28,424 nucleotides of DNA from a virus (taxonomy: Duplodnaviria; Caudoviricetes): the IMG/VR virus record IMGVR_UViG_3300014656_000101, positions 1 through 28,424 of that record. The stretch is one strand, 5' to 3'. The notes under the pieces are model-generated. The model was not told where the DNA came from, searched no databases, and saw only the letters and a program-made list of their open reading frames with translations. Both the position numbers and the translations under genes were made by a program. The first letter of the stretch is position 1, and every line of letters starts with the position of its first letter. Below, one piece after another: positions 3,230 through 22,272 of the stretch.

Positions 3230-3787
3230 ATGGGAAATGGAATAGATGTCAGAGTAGTATGTAAATATCTCGACTTCAGGGGCAAACACAAGGAACTAGA
3301 GAGACAGGCTGTCAAGTTGCGTAAGCATTTGGCTGATATGGAAAGGGAGTTGGAGAGGGTGATATCAGGTGAGTCTGAAGCCTTGTCTCTTATCGACCCC
3401 GACTGCCTTATTACAGCGAAGTCAGTAAAGACCATCAACCAGTTGCTGTTGTCGGTTCGGGGATTGTGTCAACAGGACGGTGTAGTGATGCCTATGTCTT
3501 ATATGGGTCTGGTATTAAAGGGTGGTAAGTTGCGAGTTAATGCTGTGTTTGCCAAGCCTTTATTTGTTGGCTGGGAGACTAAGATACCGTACTACAGCTA
3601 CCAGTCTTGTTCTTTGTCCATAGAGACACCCGAACCACCGAGCGAGAACCATATCCCCCGCTATCAGGTAGTGGTTGACCAAGAGGTGAATGTGTCTTGC
3701 TGGGAGCAGAGGGACGGTGAGGTTAGGTTGTGGGGCGTAGGAGGGATGATGCTGAAGTTAGTATTGGAGGGAGATAATACCCAGTGA
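3230..3787 (+). CDS. Hypothetical protein with N-terminal coiled coil
   Basis: 185-aa ORF, AAGGA RBS, stop overlaps the next start (GTGA). Confidence 0.7.
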   Translation: MGNGIDVRVVCKYLDFRGKHKELERQAVKLRKHLADMERELERVISGESEALSLIDPDCLITAKSVKTINQLLLSVRGLCQQDGVVMPMSYMGLVLKGGKLRVNAVFAKPLFVGWETKIPYYSYQSCSLSIETPEPPSENHIPRYQVVVDQEVNVSCWEQRDGEVRLWGVGGMMLKLVLEGDNTQ

Positions 3788-5829
3788 CAGCGACTTTTAT
3801 TACTGGTCATGTTATTGAGAAACTCAGGGAGTTGCCTGCTGACTCTGTGCATATGGCGGTGACAAGCCCACCATACTATGGTTTGCGAAAATATTCTGGG
3901 GAGCAGGAAGTAGTGTGGGGTGGTGACTTGGAGTGTGAGCATGAGTGGGTTACACATTACCAGTCGCCGAAGGGAGGGCGCAACCTCCCAAACAATATGC
4001 CAAACACTGGTGGTGACCGAACGCAGCAACTGGTAGACAGTCCCCGTTTTGGAGTTTTGAGTAATTACTGTTCTCTCTGTGGAGCATGGAAGGGAGATTA
4101 TGGTGCCGAACCCAGCCCGGAGGTCTATGTTTCTCATTCCGTAGAGATACTCCGAGAAGTGCGCCGGGTTCTGCGCCCGGATGGAGTTGTTTTCTGGAAT
4201 ATCAAGGACTCATATGCTTCTGGTAAAGGAACCTGCTTCAATCCTGGAGGGGGGAACAATAGCCTCGAGGGACATGCTCGCCTGAAAGAACAAGGTGTTT
4301 ATCCACTGGATAGAGGCAACAAGTCCGTACTCGAGGAGCAGGGACTGAAGCCCAAAGACCTCTGCCTCATCCCCCAACGACTTGCTATAGCACTATGTGA
4401 TGACGGCTGGTGGGTGAGGTCTATCGTCTTGTGGAATAAACGGAATCCGATGCCATCCAGTATAAAAGGCTGGAGGTGGGAGAGGCACATGGTTCCCCAG
4501 TGCCCTAACTGTGAATCCTACTCGTCCTTCAAGGGTCGAGTATGTAAGGTGTGTGGCTGGACGAAGCCGAGCAACAGGGGGGAGACCAAGGCATGGAGAG
4601 CGGAGACTGGGCAACAGGAGCGTAGTGATGACGGCGGGTTCAAGTCCGATTCTTTTATGGTTGAGTGTCCTGGTTGTCCCAAATGTTCTCCCAATGATGG
4701 CTACGTCCTTCGCAAGGGCTCGTGGCGTCCTACTGAGTCCCATGAATATATATTGATGCTGGCAAAGTCTGCCAACTATTTTGGGGATGGGGAAGCGGTG
4801 AAGGAGCCTCATACAACGAAGAATTTGGAGTATGAGATGGCAAAGTCGTCTAAGGGGGGGCACAAGAAGAAGATGACCTGTAAGCCGAATGTGGACAAGT
4901 ACTTAGAAGACACACACAGCTACAGTCCTGGTGGTCGTAATCTCCGTTCCGTCTGGGACGACGACGACCCCTTCATGTTCTGGCAGTTCCTCAACAAGCA
5001 TCTTCCCGAAGACCAACTCGATGAACTGGTAGCACAGTACCAGGAATATGCCAGTCAACTCAAAGACGTTTGGACGTTCAGCACGGAACCTTACAAGGGG
5101 GGACATTACGCAGCATTTCCTCCCCGCTTGGCAGAAATCTGCATCAAATCTGGTACTTCCGAAAAAGGGGTATGCTCGAAATGTGGTTCTCCGTGGGTGC
5201 GAGTGCTGAAGAAGGGTTTTACTGCTCACGATGGAGATACGGCGACCGATTATGCTCAGGGGACGAACGCTAATCGTCTGGCACCACTTAGACAGGCTGC
5301 TAGACAGAGGGGTGGCGAATATGGCAGTACTGCTTCTCCCTATGCTACCAAGTATGTGGACGATGCCCTTGGCCCGACCCCGCAAGGTTGTCAGAGGAAC
5401 AAAACCATCGAGGAGGAGCGAGTGCAGAGCCGTAGAGACGCTGTGCTATTGTTTCCTGGGGACGAGAGGGCACAGCAGGATTGCATGAACAGTGTCCATG
5501 ATCACGGCGGATTGACGGCAAGCAGAACCATCGGGTGGAAGCCATCCTGCGTCTGCCTCGATACCGACATTCCAGTTCCTTCAACTGTCCTTGACCTATT
5601 CTCCGGTGTTGGCACTACTGCTATGGTCTGCGAGCGCTTGGGACACTGCAACTCCATCAACATCGACATCTCAGCCGACTACCACGACTTGGCGCGGGAG
5701 CGCCTTGCTAAGGACGAATCCAGACGCATTGAGCAGTTTATCAAGAAAGCCAAACAGACTGCTCGTGCCAATGCCAATACCAACTCCCGTGCTGATGACG
5801 GTAAAGGAGGTGTGCCAATGAAGAAGTAG
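3784..5829 (+). CDS. Beta-class N4-cytosine/N6-adenine DNA methyltransferase with large Cys-rich insertions
   Basis: N-terminal VTSPPYY catalytic motif, RVLRPDG, KPKDL, HEY, HYAAFP, C-terminal DLFSGVGTT. Confidence 0.9.
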   Translation: MTATFITGHVIEKLRELPADSVHMAVTSPPYYGLRKYSGEQEVVWGGDLECEHEWVTHYQSPKGGRNLPNNMPNTGGDRTQQLVDSPRFGVLSNYCSLCGAWKGDYGAEPSPEVYVSHSVEILREVRRVLRPDGVVFWNIKDSYASGKGTCFNPGGGNNSLEGHARLKEQGVYPLDRGNKSVLEEQGLKPKDLCLIPQRLAIALCDDGWWVRSIVLWNKRNPMPSSIKGWRWERHMVPQCPNCESYSSFKGRVCKVCGWTKPSNRGETKAWRAETGQQERSDDGGFKSDSFMVECPGCPKCSPNDGYVLRKGSWRPTESHEYILMLAKSANYFGDGEAVKEPHTTKNLEYEMAKSSKGGHKKKMTCKPNVDKYLEDTHSYSPGGRNLRSVWDDDDPFMFWQFLNKHLPEDQLDELVAQYQEYASQLKDVWTFSTEPYKGGHYAAFPPRLAEICIKSGTSEKGVCSKCGSPWVRVLKKGFTAHDGDTATDYAQGTNANRLAPLRQAARQRGGEYGSTASPYATKYVDDALGPTPQGCQRNKTIEEERVQSRRDAVLLFPGDERAQQDCMNSVHDHGGLTASRTIGWKPSCVCLDTDIPVPSTVLDLFSGVGTTAMVCERLGHCNSINIDISADYHDLARERLAKDESRRIEQFIKKAKQTARANANTNSRADDGKGGVPMKK

Positions 5830-5857: not shown

Positions 5858-5887
5858 TTGACAAATAGACAAACATTATGGTATTAT
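5858..5887 (+). promoter_or_regulatory. Sigma70-type promoter
   Basis: TTGACA 5858-5863, 18-nt spacer, TATTAT 5882-5887 preceded by TG. Confidence 0.7.
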
Positions 5888-6756: not shown

Positions 6757-6857
6757 CTTGGTCACCAAGAGCACTCCCTGCTGAGATGTGCTCGCTCCGG
6801 TGCCGGGCGGGGGAGCAGGCGGAACCGGGGCACAATTTTACAACTGAATAGCGTTGA

Positions 6858-7127
6858 GGTGCTGGGTGTCGGAATAAGACGATAAGCGTGAGTACCCGAA
6901 TCTTTGCCCCGCTACCGTCAGGTAGTCTAGTCGAGAGTGCCTATACTTTGAAGGTATGGGATGGTAAAGACCCCTGCTCATATCCATTCTTGGAGCCTGG
7001 AGGGGTTGTGACTTTAAGGGGAGCTTCCCAAGCTAGTAAAAGAGCGGTCTGGGCTTGGGATTAGACCAGAATGAAGCCATCAAAGGGTACAGTGCAGGGA
7101 TGAAAGAGCCTTGTCCCAGTACCACCA
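6858..7127 (+). ncRNA. tRNA-like RNA (class II/Leu-like ends) with ~200-nt structured insert
   Basis: 9-bp terminal stem GGTGCTGGG/CCCAGTACC plus ACCA 3' end; D-arm-like GTCGGAATAAGAC; T-arm-like GCAGGG-ATGAAAGAG-CCTTGT; GTACCC/GGGTAC closes the insert. Confidence 0.65.
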
Positions 7128-7399
7128 TATCTGTCCGTAGTCCGCTGTCCTAGGAGGGTTGAGTCCTCGTAGGCTATTCACTGCAATGGAGGTTGTACTG
7201 GAAGCTAGAGAGAGTGTGCGAGAATATCTTTACTACTTGTGTTCTGTGTATCCTCCAGTACGTAGACGAAAACACAAGAGAGTCAAGGTCTATCAGCTTC
7301 CCTTGTGGAGGTCAAAAATATACTCCAAGCTGGACTGTAAAGGGTAAATAAGGGTGCCGTAAATAATCGGCATGAAGGGACGGATGCTATGGACAGATA
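7128..7399 (+). ncRNA. Unknown ~270-nt structured RNA
   Basis: 13-bp closing stem 7128-7140/7387-7399, several internal hairpins, 8-bp loop-loop complementarity 7236-7243/7271-7278. Confidence 0.55.
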
Positions 7400-7400
7400 A

Positions 7401-7502
7401 AGCCGAAACCGGGAGATAGGTGGACAACGACGGTCTATCCAGCAATGGGATAAGACGTGAGCCACAATGCTCCCGGTCTACCGAGAAGGTACTGATGAGG
7501 CT
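7401..7502 (+). ncRNA. Type II hammerhead ribozyme; predicted cleavage after C7478
   Basis: AGCC-GAA-ACCGGGAG...CTCCCGGT-C-TACC-GAGAA-GGTA-CTGATGA-GGCT: complete core, GUC triplet, stems I, II and III all pair. Confidence 0.9.
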
Positions 7503-7533
7503 GTCTGTTATCCTATAGCAGAAGGAGAACCAC

Positions 7534-7740
7534 ATGGATAGTGTAGGTCAGTTAGTGGGGAAGAGTAAGACGAAAGTGGTTGTTATGTATGTCGAAGCCC
7601 CAGGAGGCAGAATACATATCTACGGGTATCGACACCCCGCACCTAGTGTATATGGTCGTTACTCAGTGGATATAGATACAGAGACACAGTGTGAAGCCGT
7701 CAGAGCGTTCATGGAGGAACATAGTAGAGTAAACTGTTAG
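7534..7740 (+). CDS. Hypothetical protein
   Basis: 68-aa ORF with AAGGAG RBS. Confidence 0.7.
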   Translation: MDSVGQLVGKSKTKVVVMYVEAPGGRIHIYGYRHPAPSVYGRYSVDIDTETQCEAVRAFMEEHSRVNC

Positions 7741-11656: not shown

Positions 11657-11956
11657 GTGGAAGGTATGAGCATATGTGACGTGTTCCTCTATTACGAGGA
11701 AGCTAGGGAGCTGGGCTATAGCTTGCATCACTGTGGCAACGACGGCTCTGGTGGCGTCTCCTATGTCTCTTATGTGAAGAACGGACTATTCTTGGATATC
11801 TGGAGGAACGAGGCCGGGGGATTGCTGGCTAAATTGTCGTTTGTTTTTCCACCAGCAATCACTTCTATACGGTTCAGTCTCCCGAACAAGAACTTTGCTG
11901 TCTTCGAGGATAGGATGATGCGGGCGAAGAGGATCGTCGAGGCAGAGGGGTTATGA
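11657..11956 (+). CDS. Hypothetical protein (start probably ATG 11666)
   Basis: ORF co-oriented with the operon. Confidence 0.6.
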   Translation: MEGMSICDVFLYYEEARELGYSLHHCGNDGSGGVSYVSYVKNGLFLDIWRNEAGGLLAKLSFVFPPAITSIRFSLPNKNFAVFEDRMMRAKRIVEAEGL

Positions 11957-16492: not shown

Positions 16493-19225
16493 ATGCCCCA
16501 CGACCGCTACTACCGACAACCTAAGCCATTGCCAGACCCGTCTACTCTACCATTCCCTGGCAATCTTATCCGGCTGTGTACTGACTGCGAGTTGCATAAG
16601 GGTTGCAAAGCACCTGTTCCAGGTCGTGGTCCAACTGCCGCTTATGTGATGTTTGTTGGAGAGGCCCCGGGCCAAGACGAAGATTTATGGGGTTATGAAC
16701 CCTTTGTCGGACGTGCTGGGCAACAACTCAACTCTCTGCTGTTACAGATAGGGCTGTCCAGAGAGACAGCCTATCTCACGAATACTATCCACTGTCATCC
16801 TCCCCATAATAGAGACCCCAAACCATCTGAGGTCAAAGCCTGCTCCCACTGGCTCGACTTAGAAATAGAACTGGTTAATCCCCATATCATAGTGGCAATG
16901 GGTGCTCCCGCTATCCGGCGCTTCCTTGGTGACACTGCTGGCACTGTCGAGCATCTTCATGGCAAACCCGTAGCCGTGCAGGTTGGGTCAGCCGTCCGTG
17001 TAGTTCTTCCCTGTTATCATCCTGCTGCCGGGCTTCGTGTTACTGCTCATCTGCGCCACCTCTATGATGACTTTCAAGTGTTACGAGGATTGGCGGGTGG
17101 TAGGGACTTGGCAGATTACAGGGTGGTGGATGAGTACCCAGAACCAGACTATCGGGTGGTAGATACCCCAGAACTATTGGCTGAAATGGCTGACGATATT
17201 ATGGATTCCGGACAGTTTGCCATTGACACCGAGACGTGGAAGCGAGGTGTGGAACTATGGAGTACTCAAATCAGTGCCAGGCCGGGGACATCATGGTTTA
17301 CTCCTGTGAGGGTTGGATACGGCAGGGATAGAGTAGACCTGACCAAGTTTGGTGCTCATGTCATCGTCCACAACTATCTGTTTGATGTTCAGTGGTTGGT
17401 AATCACCGATGGCAGGTTCACGGACTCAATGGTGCAGGCCTACCTTCTTGGATTGCCGCAGGGCTTAAAAGAACTCGCATCCCGTCTTTGCGGAATGGCC
17501 ATGATAACCTACTCCGAGATGGTTCGTCCTGGGCAGCGGAAACTATCAGTAGACTATCTCACAGAGGCCATATCCCGTGACTGGCCGGACCCGCCAGAAG
17601 TCGAGGAAGTCAAGTGGGACAACAAGGCGGGCAAGATAGTAACTAAGATAAAGCATCCGTGGCATATCACTCGCAAGATGAAGAAGATACTGGCGGACTC
17701 GGTAGATAACCTGGACATAGACCCTTATGACCGATGGAGACACGTAGACCAGCAGGAGAGGGTGGAGGTGGAGAAGGCTCTTGGTATAATGCCGGAATCC
17801 TCGCTTGCAGACATTAAGTTCGAGGACGCCGTGCAATACGCATGTAGAGATTCGGATGCCACCATCCGTGTTAAGCTCAAGATGGACGGACTAATCCGCG
17901 AGGCGGGACTGGGGCTCGTGCTTAACTCCATAGACCTAGCTTGTCTCCCAGAAGTATACGATATGATGCAGAACGGCATGACCGTGGACATACCTTACCT
18001 CAAGGAATTATCCAAGCACTACGCCGAGGGCATGGACAGGGCTGCCTTTCTTGCTGCTGCTAAAGTCGGACATCCGTTCAATCCCAGTTCCAGCAAGCAG
18101 GTGGCCACGGTCATATATGAGGAGCTCGGATTCAAACCCACCAAGCGAACTGCTACTGGACTTATAAGCACCGATGACCGGGAACTCAAGAAGGTATCCC
18201 ATCCGGTGGTCAGCGATATTCTGGAATATCGACGGCTGAACAAGAATAAGGGGACGTTTGCCGATTCGCTGGTGAATAACGCCGTCCCCCACGAGGTAGA
18301 TGGACAGACAGTATATCGTGTTCACACTACTCTCAAAGTAACGAGGACGGAGACTGGTAGATTGTCTAGTTCAGAACCTGTCAATCTCCAGACGATGCCC
18401 GTCAGATCTGAGGAGGGCAGAAAAATAAGGGGTGGGTTCTCGTTTACTCCCGGATATAAAGGGTTAGCTGGCGACTTCATCCAACAGGAAATGAAACTGC
18501 AGGCCCATGAGGCTCAGTGCAGGAGTATGATAGACGTGTTTCTAAGGGGTGACGATCTTCATACCGATACTGCTGCCCAGATATTCGGTGTCCCTATAGA
18601 TGTGGCCGAGAAGATACAGTACCGTTACCCCGCGAAGTCAACGAACTTCGGGATTATTTATCTCATCAGTGCTAAGGGATTGTATGAGAAGATCCATGAG
18701 GATGCTGCCGACATTATTGTGGACGGTAAGCCACTGGATGTCTCGGAGTGGACGCTGGATTCCTGTGAGCGACTTATCAGTGATTGGTATAGGCTCCGCC
18801 CAGAGGTCAGGGACTACCAGATGGAGCGTATTGCATTTGCCCGTCGCCACGGGTATGTTGTTGATATATTTGGCAGGAAACGGTATACCCCGGAGGTGAC
18901 TTGTCCTATTCGTGATATTCGGGAGGCTGGTGAGAGGCAAGTGGTGAACTTTGCTATCCAGGCCGGCAGTCAGGGCATCACCAAACTGGCTATGGCTTCG
19001 GCGTGGAAGAGCAGGAATAGGCTTTACTCCCCCGAAGATGTACGGTTTCTCATGCAAATCCATGATGAACTTATGCTAGAGATTAAGGGCGATGAGGAGT
19101 TTGTGTTAGAGATTGCCAAGTGGTTGAAAGGGATTATGGATAATGTTGTGATGCTGAGTATACCGATGATTTCGGATGTGAAGGTGGGGTATAGGTGGAA
19201 TTCTATGGAGAAGCTGGAACTGTGA
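16493..19225 (+). CDS. polA: Family A DNA polymerase fused to N-terminal family-4 uracil-DNA glycosylase
   Basis: UDG: CTDC, GEAPG, PFVGRAG, HPAA; exonuclease: AIDTET, HNYLFD, YACRD; polymerase: TETGRLSS, NLQ, DFIQQE, RYPAKSTNFGIIY, QIHDEL. Confidence 0.95.
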   Translation: MPHDRYYRQPKPLPDPSTLPFPGNLIRLCTDCELHKGCKAPVPGRGPTAAYVMFVGEAPGQDEDLWGYEPFVGRAGQQLNSLLLQIGLSRETAYLTNTIHCHPPHNRDPKPSEVKACSHWLDLEIELVNPHIIVAMGAPAIRRFLGDTAGTVEHLHGKPVAVQVGSAVRVVLPCYHPAAGLRVTAHLRHLYDDFQVLRGLAGGRDLADYRVVDEYPEPDYRVVDTPELLAEMADDIMDSGQFAIDTETWKRGVELWSTQISARPGTSWFTPVRVGYGRDRVDLTKFGAHVIVHNYLFDVQWLVITDGRFTDSMVQAYLLGLPQGLKELASRLCGMAMITYSEMVRPGQRKLSVDYLTEAISRDWPDPPEVEEVKWDNKAGKIVTKIKHPWHITRKMKKILADSVDNLDIDPYDRWRHVDQQERVEVEKALGIMPESSLADIKFEDAVQYACRDSDATIRVKLKMDGLIREAGLGLVLNSIDLACLPEVYDMMQNGMTVDIPYLKELSKHYAEGMDRAAFLAAAKVGHPFNPSSSKQVATVIYEELGFKPTKRTATGLISTDDRELKKVSHPVVSDILEYRRLNKNKGTFADSLVNNAVPHEVDGQTVYRVHTTLKVTRTETGRLSSSEPVNLQTMPVRSEEGRKIRGGFSFTPGYKGLAGDFIQQEMKLQAHEAQCRSMIDVFLRGDDLHTDTAAQIFGVPIDVAEKIQYRYPAKSTNFGIIYLISAKGLYEKIHEDAADIIVDGKPLDVSEWTLDSCERLISDWYRLRPEVRDYQMERIAFARRHGYVVDIFGRKRYTPEVTCPIRDIREAGERQVVNFAIQAGSQGITKLAMASAWKSRNRLYSPEDVRFLMQIHDELMLEIKGDEEFVLEIAKWLKGIMDNVVMLSIPMISDVKVGYRWNSMEKLEL

Positions 19226-21229: not shown

Positions 21230-21409
21230 ATGATTAAAGGTCTAATAGGTGTAGCAATAGGGCTCGTCAGCTACATCGTGGTAGCGCAGCTGGTGAGTGC
21301 CTTAGTCACTGGCACGAACACAGGAGACGTCATTATTCAGAATATTCTCGGGTTGGCAGTAGCCATCGGCGTAGTCCTTTTCGCTTTTACGACCTTCTTG
21401 AAGGCGTAA
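21230..21409 (+). CDS. 59-aa two-helix hydrophobic protein, copy 1; candidate major virion protein
   Basis: MIKGLIGVAIGLVSYIVVAQLVSALVTGTNTGDVIIQNILGLAVAIGVVLFAFTTFLKA; GGAGG RBS; synonymous divergence from copy 2 shows coding selection. Confidence 0.9.
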   Translation: MIKGLIGVAIGLVSYIVVAQLVSALVTGTNTGDVIIQNILGLAVAIGVVLFAFTTFLKA

Positions 21410-21496: not shown

Positions 21497-21676
21497 ATGA
21501 TTAAAGGTTTGATAGGTGTAGCCATTGGACTGGTAACTTATATTGTCGTTTCGCAACTTGTCACTGCTCTAGTGACAGGGACAGCGACCGGTGACGTGAT
21601 CATTCAGAACATTCTTGGACTTGCCGTCGCAATCGGCGTTGTGATCTTTGCATTTACGACCTTCTTGAAGGCGTAA
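21497..21676 (+). CDS. 59-aa two-helix hydrophobic protein, copy 2
   Basis: MIKGLIGVAIGLVTYIVVSQLVTALVTGTATGDVIIQNILGLAVAIGVVIFAFTTFLKA; 54/59 aa identical to copy 1. Confidence 0.9.
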   Translation: MIKGLIGVAIGLVTYIVVSQLVTALVTGTATGDVIIQNILGLAVAIGVVIFAFTTFLKA

Positions 21677-21773: not shown

Positions 21774-21836
21774 GTCATCGTATTCGTGCCTGTAAATCTT
21801 TTTTCAACTTTTTTTTCAAAATACCCCTTTGACCCC

Positions 21837-21865
21837 TTGACAAACCCTTGAATGTGTGCTATGAT
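21837..21865 (+). promoter_or_regulatory. Strong sigma70-type promoter for the small-gene array
   Basis: TTGACA 21837-21842, 17 nt, extended TG, TATGAT 21860-21865; T/A tracts upstream. Confidence 0.85.
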
Positions 21866-22246: not shown

Positions 22247-22272
22247 CTTAACAACTCAATAGTGGACGGGTA
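22247..22272 (+). repeat. 26-bp element, inverted relative to copies at 22608-22633, 23713-23728 (partial) and 24374-24399
   Basis: CTTAACAACTCAATAGTGGACGGGTA is the reverse complement (24/26) of TACCCGTCCACTATTGAGCGGTTAAG. Confidence 0.9.

Follow-up and report, generated by a model that had tools for sequence, protein, structure and literature searches.

The locus studied here raises a question of content: what lies between positions 6757 and 7533 of a 28.4-kb virus record, where 777 nucleotides separate two plus-strand genes, and does this stretch specify one RNA or several? An earlier note, made from the letters alone, had read it as the largest gap without a credible ORF, tiled with abutting structured modules of a polycistronic RNA, and had singled out a piece of about 350 nucleotides as the product. 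We analyzed the window, meaning the whole stretch of 28,424 nucleotides, which is the entire virus record, and compared the gap with related loci. The gap is an ordered array (boxA-like motif, module A, module 2, hammerhead) and not one RNA.

A non-coding, structured gap in a phage operon

Among plus-strand genes in the ORF list, the interval at 6757-7533 is the longest gap, the next being 1173-1597, and it is real and non-coding, as the earlier note had it. The short ORFs inside it lack a properly spaced Shine-Dalgarno site, and no homologue was found for the longest internal plus-strand ORF (62 amino acids). A sigma-70-like promoter (TTGACA-18-TATTAT) at 5858-5887 on the plus strand, predicted from a match to 11 of 12 consensus positions, is the likely transcript start, in agreement with the proposal of abutting modules in one polycistronic RNA. 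Another promoter-like site, at 21832-21864, has CCCCTTGACAAA in common with it.

The 5' neighbor of the array is a conserved phage gene (5977-6756, plus strand; 199 homologues, 1661 cluster representatives) encoding 259 amino acids, and one relative of the protein is labelled Deltaproteobacteria. It belongs to no Pfam or PHROG family. In fold searches with a structure model (pLDDT 84.7), the C-terminal winged helix gave matches at Z 7-7.8 and the N-terminal beta domain a weak, OB-fold-like match (PrgE, Z 6.0, rmsd 5.2), while Foldseek returned no match at E <= 0.001; the protein is left without firm placement, and we infer only that it may be SSB-like. On the 3' side, a ribosome-binding site and the first downstream ORF (68 amino acids, from 7534, in the ORF list) occupy 7523-7740 on the plus strand.

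Elsewhere in the window, Pfam and PHROG family scans identified a helicase, a methyltransferase, a Sak4-like protein, a thymidylate synthase, an ERCC4 nuclease and a UDG-polA protein. The last is a DNA polymerase of family A that has a uracil-DNA glycosylase domain at its N terminus (16493-19225), and the methyltransferase is a 681-amino-acid N6/N4 enzyme whose motifs are set apart by long insertions (3784-5829). Imperfect direct repeats clustered at 1151-1456, right 3' of a 238-amino-acid ORF (456-1172), resemble an iteron origin or operator array. Two tandem, near-identical hydrophobic ORFs of 59 amino acids (21230-21409 and 21497-21676) have a common leader motif, and the first of them has no Pfam or PHROG family. 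Sequencing runs containing window DNA are mostly groundwater metagenomes. The only taxon names among the 120 thymidylate synthase relatives listed belong to two Dehalococcoidales proteins (66-68% identity), a weak hint that the host may be Dehalococcoidales-like. Genome contigs scanned with the upstream protein alignment yielded no relative, and so no prophage or host link.

Folding z-scores against shuffles were -2.1 for the whole gap, -2.7 for 6857-7127, -3.6 for 7128-7400 and -3.5 for 7395-7525, and the gap folds at -276 kcal/mol on the plus strand versus -233 on the minus strand, with 23 G-U pairs. The hairpin cluster that had been counted as a first structured module fares worse: these two GC-rich hairpins (6769-6832, plus strand) lie 5' of the array, their region (6768-6834) has a non-significant z of -1.2 and their membership is uncertain. 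One related contig has 6767-6803 in common, in another context. Competing folds exist in the whole-gap ensemble, where the acceptor stem of module A and hammerhead stems I and II reach a probability of only about 0.26.

No known family accounts for the gap. Rfam gave no match at gathering score across the window and weak matches only in the gap, the sole meaningful one being Hammerhead_II at 7401-7509; 20 related loci gave none at E <= 1, and 14 more, at E <= 5, gave one ordinary tRNA and chance matches. Covariance models of GOLLD, ROOL and other large RNAs, either of which the earlier note had named as families that could cover the region, were unmatched in the window and in both of these sets of loci. 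ARAGORN found nothing in the window or in 48 loci, and the gap had no blastn match among 50,697 phage records. Readings as HDV/theta, pistol or twister ribozymes, 6S, SRP or RNase P RNA were dropped, the consensus motifs and Rfam matches being absent.

A boxA-like motif opens the array

Protein scans with the upstream gene gave 96 loci, 78 of them with at least 150 nucleotides downstream and 64 of these non-redundant; one of the 64 (L002) is an identical copy of the window, and the stop codon is possibly misplaced in a few distant loci. Comparison of these loci brought out a feature absent from the earlier account, a motif at 6836-6850 (plus strand) with its core ACAACTGAATA at 6840-6850. Allowing at most one mismatch within the first 400 nucleotides, ACAACTGAATA occurs in 35 of the 64 loci; 20 shuffles gave 0-2 and the reverse strand none. 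It is single per record in five of five array-bearing phage records.

The motif is boxA-like. The boxA consensus is UGCUCUUUAACA in E. coli and AUGAUCUUUGAAA in B. subtilis, the latter binding NusB, and boxA/Nus antitermination shields rRNA and CRISPR transcripts, according to PMC13753749. The complete UCUUUAACA is present in L021, L055 and L067, and most loci, including the window, retain just its 3' part together with CUGAAUA; in most phage copies the 5' UCUUU portion is degenerate, and the likeness is partial. From this likeness and from its position, the motif is predicted to load Nus factors. A second boxA-like motif, with one mismatch, occurs at 22251-22261 before ORF 22290, in a region of small ORFs.

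Among 201 Bacillota genomes, 10 have a longer form of the motif, at 12 sites in all and never at an rRNA gene; these genomes are often without rRNA and are probably not the host. Four of the 12 sites (L257, L258, L259 and L267, the last with the motif at 1501) lie about 140-240 nucleotides upstream of an Rfam pemK RNA.

Module A, a predicted anticodon-less, tRNA-shaped RNA

Directly behind the motif, module A (6858-7127, plus strand) was delimited by a descriptor, family covariation and related contigs. An acceptor-like stem of 9 bp (6858-6866/7115-7123) is followed by U8-G9 (6867-6868), a D stem (6869-6871/6880-6882), a helix (6892-6897/7085-7090) that encloses a conserved core of about 190 nucleotides, a T-like arm (7094-7114) and ACCA (7124-7127), all on the plus strand. 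A descriptor of this scaffold (acceptor-like stem, U8-R9, 3-bp D stem, insert, 6-7-bp T stem) matches 6858-7123 and nothing else in the window, against no match in 30 shuffles, and has 16 distinct members in all, including this one.

Support for the scaffold as a family comes from three directions. Eight sequences matched a pattern for the 5' arm, and all eight also have the T arm and acceptor strand on the 3' side, a test that is not circular because the pattern covered the 5' arm alone. Among 13 members, excluding the window and chosen partly by pairing, 9 of 16 pairs changed on both sides, as in none of 500 shuffles. Finally, a covariance model built without the window found three further members and three in cultured phages at 55-75 bits, and the family would thus number about 22, three of them in cultured phages. 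Unannotated scaffold RNAs are present in cultured Lactobacillus, Latilactobacillus and Bacillus phages (L269:700-809, L272:694-798, L271:699-810); in Lactobacillus phage ATCC 8014-B2, the source of L269, the unannotated scaffold lies between two tRNA-Arg genes. In the D and T loops of 20 members read by eye, position 56 is C with G at position 19 in 14 members, G with C in 5 and U with A in 1, a complementarity that suggests a tRNA elbow, although two lineages may explain it instead.

The window copy is divergent, with a U-A pair where most members have G10-C25. The model built without it aligns module A end to end with exact ends, at 10.1 bits and E 0.39, and in the same search module A is outranked by a hairpin at 11821-11859. 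This hairpin, the model's best match and possibly a chance one, is palindromic with arms like those of clamp 1 (below) and lies inside ORF 11657-11956. In favor of its membership, other contigs in seven sequencing runs agree with it over 6864-6912, 6918-6970 and 7007-7113, differ in the intervening hairpins, and run into the family consensus arms (5' GGCGGAATAGGT; 3' CCCTAG then CCAGCAAG). Because the contigs match in blocks and continue into consensus arms, the core of about 190 nucleotides is, on this comparison, a conserved, uncatalogued RNA. Module A patterns found chance matches only in viral and genome contigs, and the blanks from one such pattern weigh little because it fixed the window base at 7080, where most relatives differ; against five related phage records, module A gave one 24-nucleotide match only.

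The earlier note had a tRNA-like RNA ending in CCA at 7127. The tRNA-like shape holds and ACCA is present, but NCCA follows the stem in just 2 of 16 scaffold members and is missing in close relatives of module A. The CCA end is therefore probably incidental, and an RNA end at 7127 is doubtful.

Could module A instead be a tRNA with a self-splicing intron, or a divergent tmRNA, the rest of the gap being mere context? Its tRNA-like ends, genomic ACCA, G4-U69 pair and a possible 8-nucleotide pseudoknot (6925-6932/7059-7066) would fit, and the insert sits at the place of the tmRNA P2 helix. However, the branch is 9/6, in place of the 7/5 of a cloverleaf, with a T stem of 6-7 bp, and removal of the insert yields no anticodon arm and no canonical tRNA. 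The P7 R and S motifs of group I introns and the signature motifs of RNase P are absent. As for tmRNA, U3-A70 accompanies G4-U69 and there is no G3-U70, NCCA is as rare as stated, and an internal ORF is stopped in a relative. With ARAGORN and Rfam also negative, this explanation is hardly probable at all. A YrlA-type Y RNA was likewise rejected: the GNCGAAN(0-1)G motif is absent from both modules, and the RNA ends of module A form the acceptor. No Ro60 gene was found among the 22 window ORFs scanned, in a record that may be incomplete.

Module 2 and the type II hammerhead

Module 2 (7128-7399, plus strand; z -3.6) is a predicted 272-nucleotide RNA closed by a 14-bp stem (7128-7141/7386-7399), with pair probabilities mostly of 0.98-0.99, and it agrees with the closed RNA that had been proposed to start at 7128. 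Several pseudoknots are possible in its interior. No nhmmer match was found in related loci, and none of the seven runs had a diverged contig over it, which for these runs carries no proof of absence. Module 2 occupies the clamp-2 position of relatives without the consensus clamp-2 sequence, and its status as a module would rest on folding and position only. A small-peptide reading was rejected, the 62-amino-acid ORF having neither a properly spaced Shine-Dalgarno site nor a homologue.

The hammerhead does begin at 7401, as announced. A type II hammerhead at 7401-7502 is the sole descriptor match in the window, with stem II (7401-7404/7499-7502), GAAA (7405-7408), stem III (7408-7415/7470-7477), GUC, stem I (7479-7482/7488-7491) and CUGAUGA (7492-7498), all on the plus strand. 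All elements of the core (CUGANGA, GAAA, NUH; stems I and III closed, II open) are in place, with stems of 4, 4 and 8 bp, and because the core is intact we predict cleavage after C7478, so that the downstream mRNA would start at 7479. The Rfam model (RF02276) scores 20 bits (E 0.33), where the gathering score is 37, and leaves 57 nucleotides in stem III unaligned. A pseudoknot between loop I and the 3' tail could have about 3 bp as read from the sequence, versus the criterion of at least 4 bp given in PMC3088659, which also reports active type II hammerheads in prophage polycistrons.

Stem III contains a structured insert (7416-7469, plus strand), an 80% identical copy of which, with compensatory changes, exists in L021 (E 2e-8). 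In L021, stem III and the insert follow a different module, and CUGAUGA is lost. A further related contig with the insert was found in run X2, and a hammerhead-insert pattern gave no match in viral contigs. Over the 64 loci, the hammerhead descriptor found 6 strict and 15 relaxed matches (none in 20 shuffles at the relaxed setting), and hammerheads decay in some loci (L021, L093). Cleavage appears dispensable in the family, because by the descriptor the hammerhead is incomplete or missing in 49 of the 64 loci.

The proposal of a single 350-nucleotide RNA (7128-7478) is weakened by these comparisons. Hammerhead and insert occur after other modules or alone, and the recurrence of the insert in L021 behind a different module marks the piece as a composite. 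It would be a join of two independent parts, doubtful as a unit, although it could still arise as a product should no cut occur at 7400. The important unit appears to be the whole variable array.

Order is kept while cargo is exchanged

Arrays reduced to motif and hammerhead are found at six loci (L017, L024, L034, L041, L057, L087); longer ones have one to several stem-closed modules in between, and the most distant locus (L001) has no module. A viral scan for the motif plus a clamp start gave 49 loci, of which 12 were taken as further arrays; the remainder were judged to be duplicates, chance matches or matches in coding sequence. None of the five further array records tested, one of which is complete and one 93% complete, has the upstream gene family, and the arrays of G001, G003 and G004 adjoin other ssb-like or ERF-like genes (ORFs read by eye). 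By loose patterns, 33 of 53 arrays have clamp 1, 19 have clamp 2, 5 have clamp 3, 13 have a hammerhead core and 6 have a tRNA-like start, counts that carry no shuffle control and include 13 arrays picked by a clamp-1-type pattern. In clamp 2, across 20 sequences chosen partly by pairing, 6 of 8 pairs changed on both sides (0 of 500 shuffles). Covariation thus upholds the tRNA-like scaffold family and a sister clamp.

Module interiors are mostly unrelated, and several recur in different positions and scaffolds. The same cargo stands in a different scaffold or position in L013, L031 and L102 (by eye) and in L012, L016, L048, L055 and L067 (blastn). This comparison shows that phages gain, lose and swap cargo RNAs in the slot.

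One recurring RNA family of about 95 nucleotides lies downstream of the SSB-like gene in L012, L016, L022, L023, L047, L048, L055 and L067, sometimes inside hammerhead stem III. Further families recur in L003/L013/L016, L016/L079, L009/L022/L067 and L039/L104, and none of these families had an Rfam match in the loci scanned. In one clade, a conserved ORF of about 60 amino acids stands between the SSB-like gene and the motif (L023, L031, L033, L037-L039, L042, L045, L048, L057, L087, L088, L093).

The array might be a long cis-acting leader, its modules tuning read-through, hammerhead cleavage or translation of the downstream exonuclease and Sak4-like genes, with no RNAs acting in trans. It does sit within an operon, competing folds exist, the 3' strand of the module 2 clamp could pair with the hammerhead tail (7392-7398/7502-7508, read from the sequence), and the motif precedes the cis-annotated pemK RNA at 4 of 12 bacterial loci. 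A leader is nevertheless unlikely: relatives differ freely both in module content and in the first downstream gene, the modules are closed, self-contained domains, and the scaffold is present between tRNA genes too.

Distinctly unlikely is the view that only the motif and hammerhead matter, and that the modules, as tRNA-cluster relics or selfish folded RNAs, gather in a tolerant slot without use to the phage. The many relatives without any module would suit it, as would hammerhead decay in L021 and L093 and the singleton status of module 2, and module A may derive from a class II tRNA-like elbow. What speaks for function is that scaffold and clamps show compensatory changes, that several contigs conserve blocks of the module A interior, with varying hairpins, and that clamp order is kept in phages with different neighboring genes.

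The cassette-like turnover also invites a reading at the DNA level, in which the stems shuffle cassettes as attC-like recombination sites, or act as replication signals that the neighboring SSB and recombinase genes serve. Arrays adjoin ssb-, ERF- or Sak4-like genes in the window, G001, G003 and G004, and single-stranded DNA and RNA motifs are hard to distinguish, as PMC5737381 remarks. Yet hammerhead cores, T-loops and G-U pairs occur on one strand only, no integrase family was found among the 22 window proteins scanned, and the iteron-like region lies elsewhere (1151-1456), making single-stranded DNA structures very unlikely.

A proposed RNA cassette

We propose, with slightly better than even confidence, that the array is an antitermination-protected, ribozyme-terminated expression cassette that releases interchangeable small RNAs, which act in trans as decoys or scaffolds binding proteins. 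Transcription would run from the 5858 promoter through the SSB-like gene, and the boxA-like motif, judging by likeness and position, would load host NusB/S10, sparing the untranslated array from Rho. The modules would then close on their own terminal stems, as family covariation argues for the scaffold and prediction for module 2, with module A forming an anticodon-less tRNA elbow that holds cargo at the variable-arm position. These stems may protect the RNAs, and the tRNA-like elbow may guide cutting of the RNase P/Z type by host enzymes. Hammerhead cleavage after C7478, predicted from the intact core, would detach the array and give the downstream mRNA a 5'-OH hairpin end. Between phages, cargo RNAs would be gained, lost and swapped in the slot, the step that comparison of loci displays.

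That the released RNAs serve as decoys or scaffolds against host or defense proteins is the weakest step and, taken by itself, rather doubtful. Decoys are favored because the cargo is closed, complex, non-coding and variable between close relatives, and because the slot follows a likely highly expressed gene and also takes small accessory ORFs. Counting against the proposed cassette are the divergence of the window modules, the partial boxA, the probability of about 0.26 for key stems and the 49 of 64 loci without a complete hammerhead.

More broadly, and tentatively, the locus might exemplify a system of modular RNA cassettes, with a slot protected by boxA and ended by a ribozyme where conserved clamps and an anticodon-less tRNA chassis carry exchangeable non-coding effector RNAs, an RNA counterpart of anti-defense gene hotspots with many uncatalogued families as payload. 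If so, phages would maintain a changing set of non-coding effectors within a single, strongly expressed slot, just as with small anti-defense proteins. The clamp grammar would offer a means to cut many new structured RNA families, with defined ends, from metagenomes, and the anticodon-less chassis would be a natural counterpart of the tRNA-scaffold trick for stable RNA expression. Since the scaffold is present, unannotated, in cultured Lactobacillus, Latilactobacillus and Bacillus phages, the role of phage stable RNAs becomes testable.

Relation to known systems

The individual parts of the array have precedent. In the literature covered, which includes few subscription papers, the ordered boxA-clamp-hammerhead array and the scaffold are undescribed; supplements of motif catalogues could hold single modules.

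Type II hammerheads of phages and prophages (RF02276; PMC3088659) resemble the one described here in their complete core, open stem II, intergenic place in a phage operon and likely role in splitting a long transcript. Here, in contrast, stem III has a conserved 54-nucleotide insert, a loop I/3'-tail pseudoknot is not clear, the ribozyme closes a non-coding array where the published ones flank single genes, and in relatives stem III stays as a clamp after loss of the core. Theta ribozymes at the 3' ends of phage tRNAs (PMC10879173) share with it the likely role of a small self-cleaving ribozyme in trimming an RNA cluster of a phage; the present one is a hammerhead and not HDV-like, its cut lies 351 nucleotides past the tRNA-like end, and there is no suppressor tRNA.

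As in the rrn operons and CRISPR arrays controlled by boxA/Nus (PMC13753749), a boxA-like motif here directly precedes a long RNA block that is untranslated and flanked by stems. The present case differs in lying within a protein-coding phage operon, and its conserved core lies further 3' than the consensus in E. coli and B. subtilis.

Module A is like the tRNA-like domain of tmRNA and the YrlA Y RNAs (PMC4201824), which keep a D/T elbow, have lost the anticodon and have a large extra domain. Unlike tmRNA, module A lacks G3-U70, a conserved CCA and a tag ORF. YrlA has its acceptor as an internal stem-loop that sits between T arm and D arm (PMC4201824), whereas in module A the D arm precedes the T arm, the RNA ends form the acceptor and the Ro motif is absent.

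The nearest parallel to the array as a whole is the phage tRNA cluster with stable RNAs. T4 RNA C and RNA D are stable RNAs of open function (PMC9697503), GOLLD and ROOL occur near tRNAs (PMC5737381), and polycistrons of irregular tRNAs are described (PMC5389517). Co-transcribed closed RNAs, predicted in our case, and tRNA-like ends are common to both. The array described here differs in having no true tRNA and no Rfam match, in its boxA-like leader and ribozyme end, and in a fixed order of clamps around unrelated, swapped cargo. With its uncatalogued RNA families, it is an extension of the stable-RNA clusters of phages.
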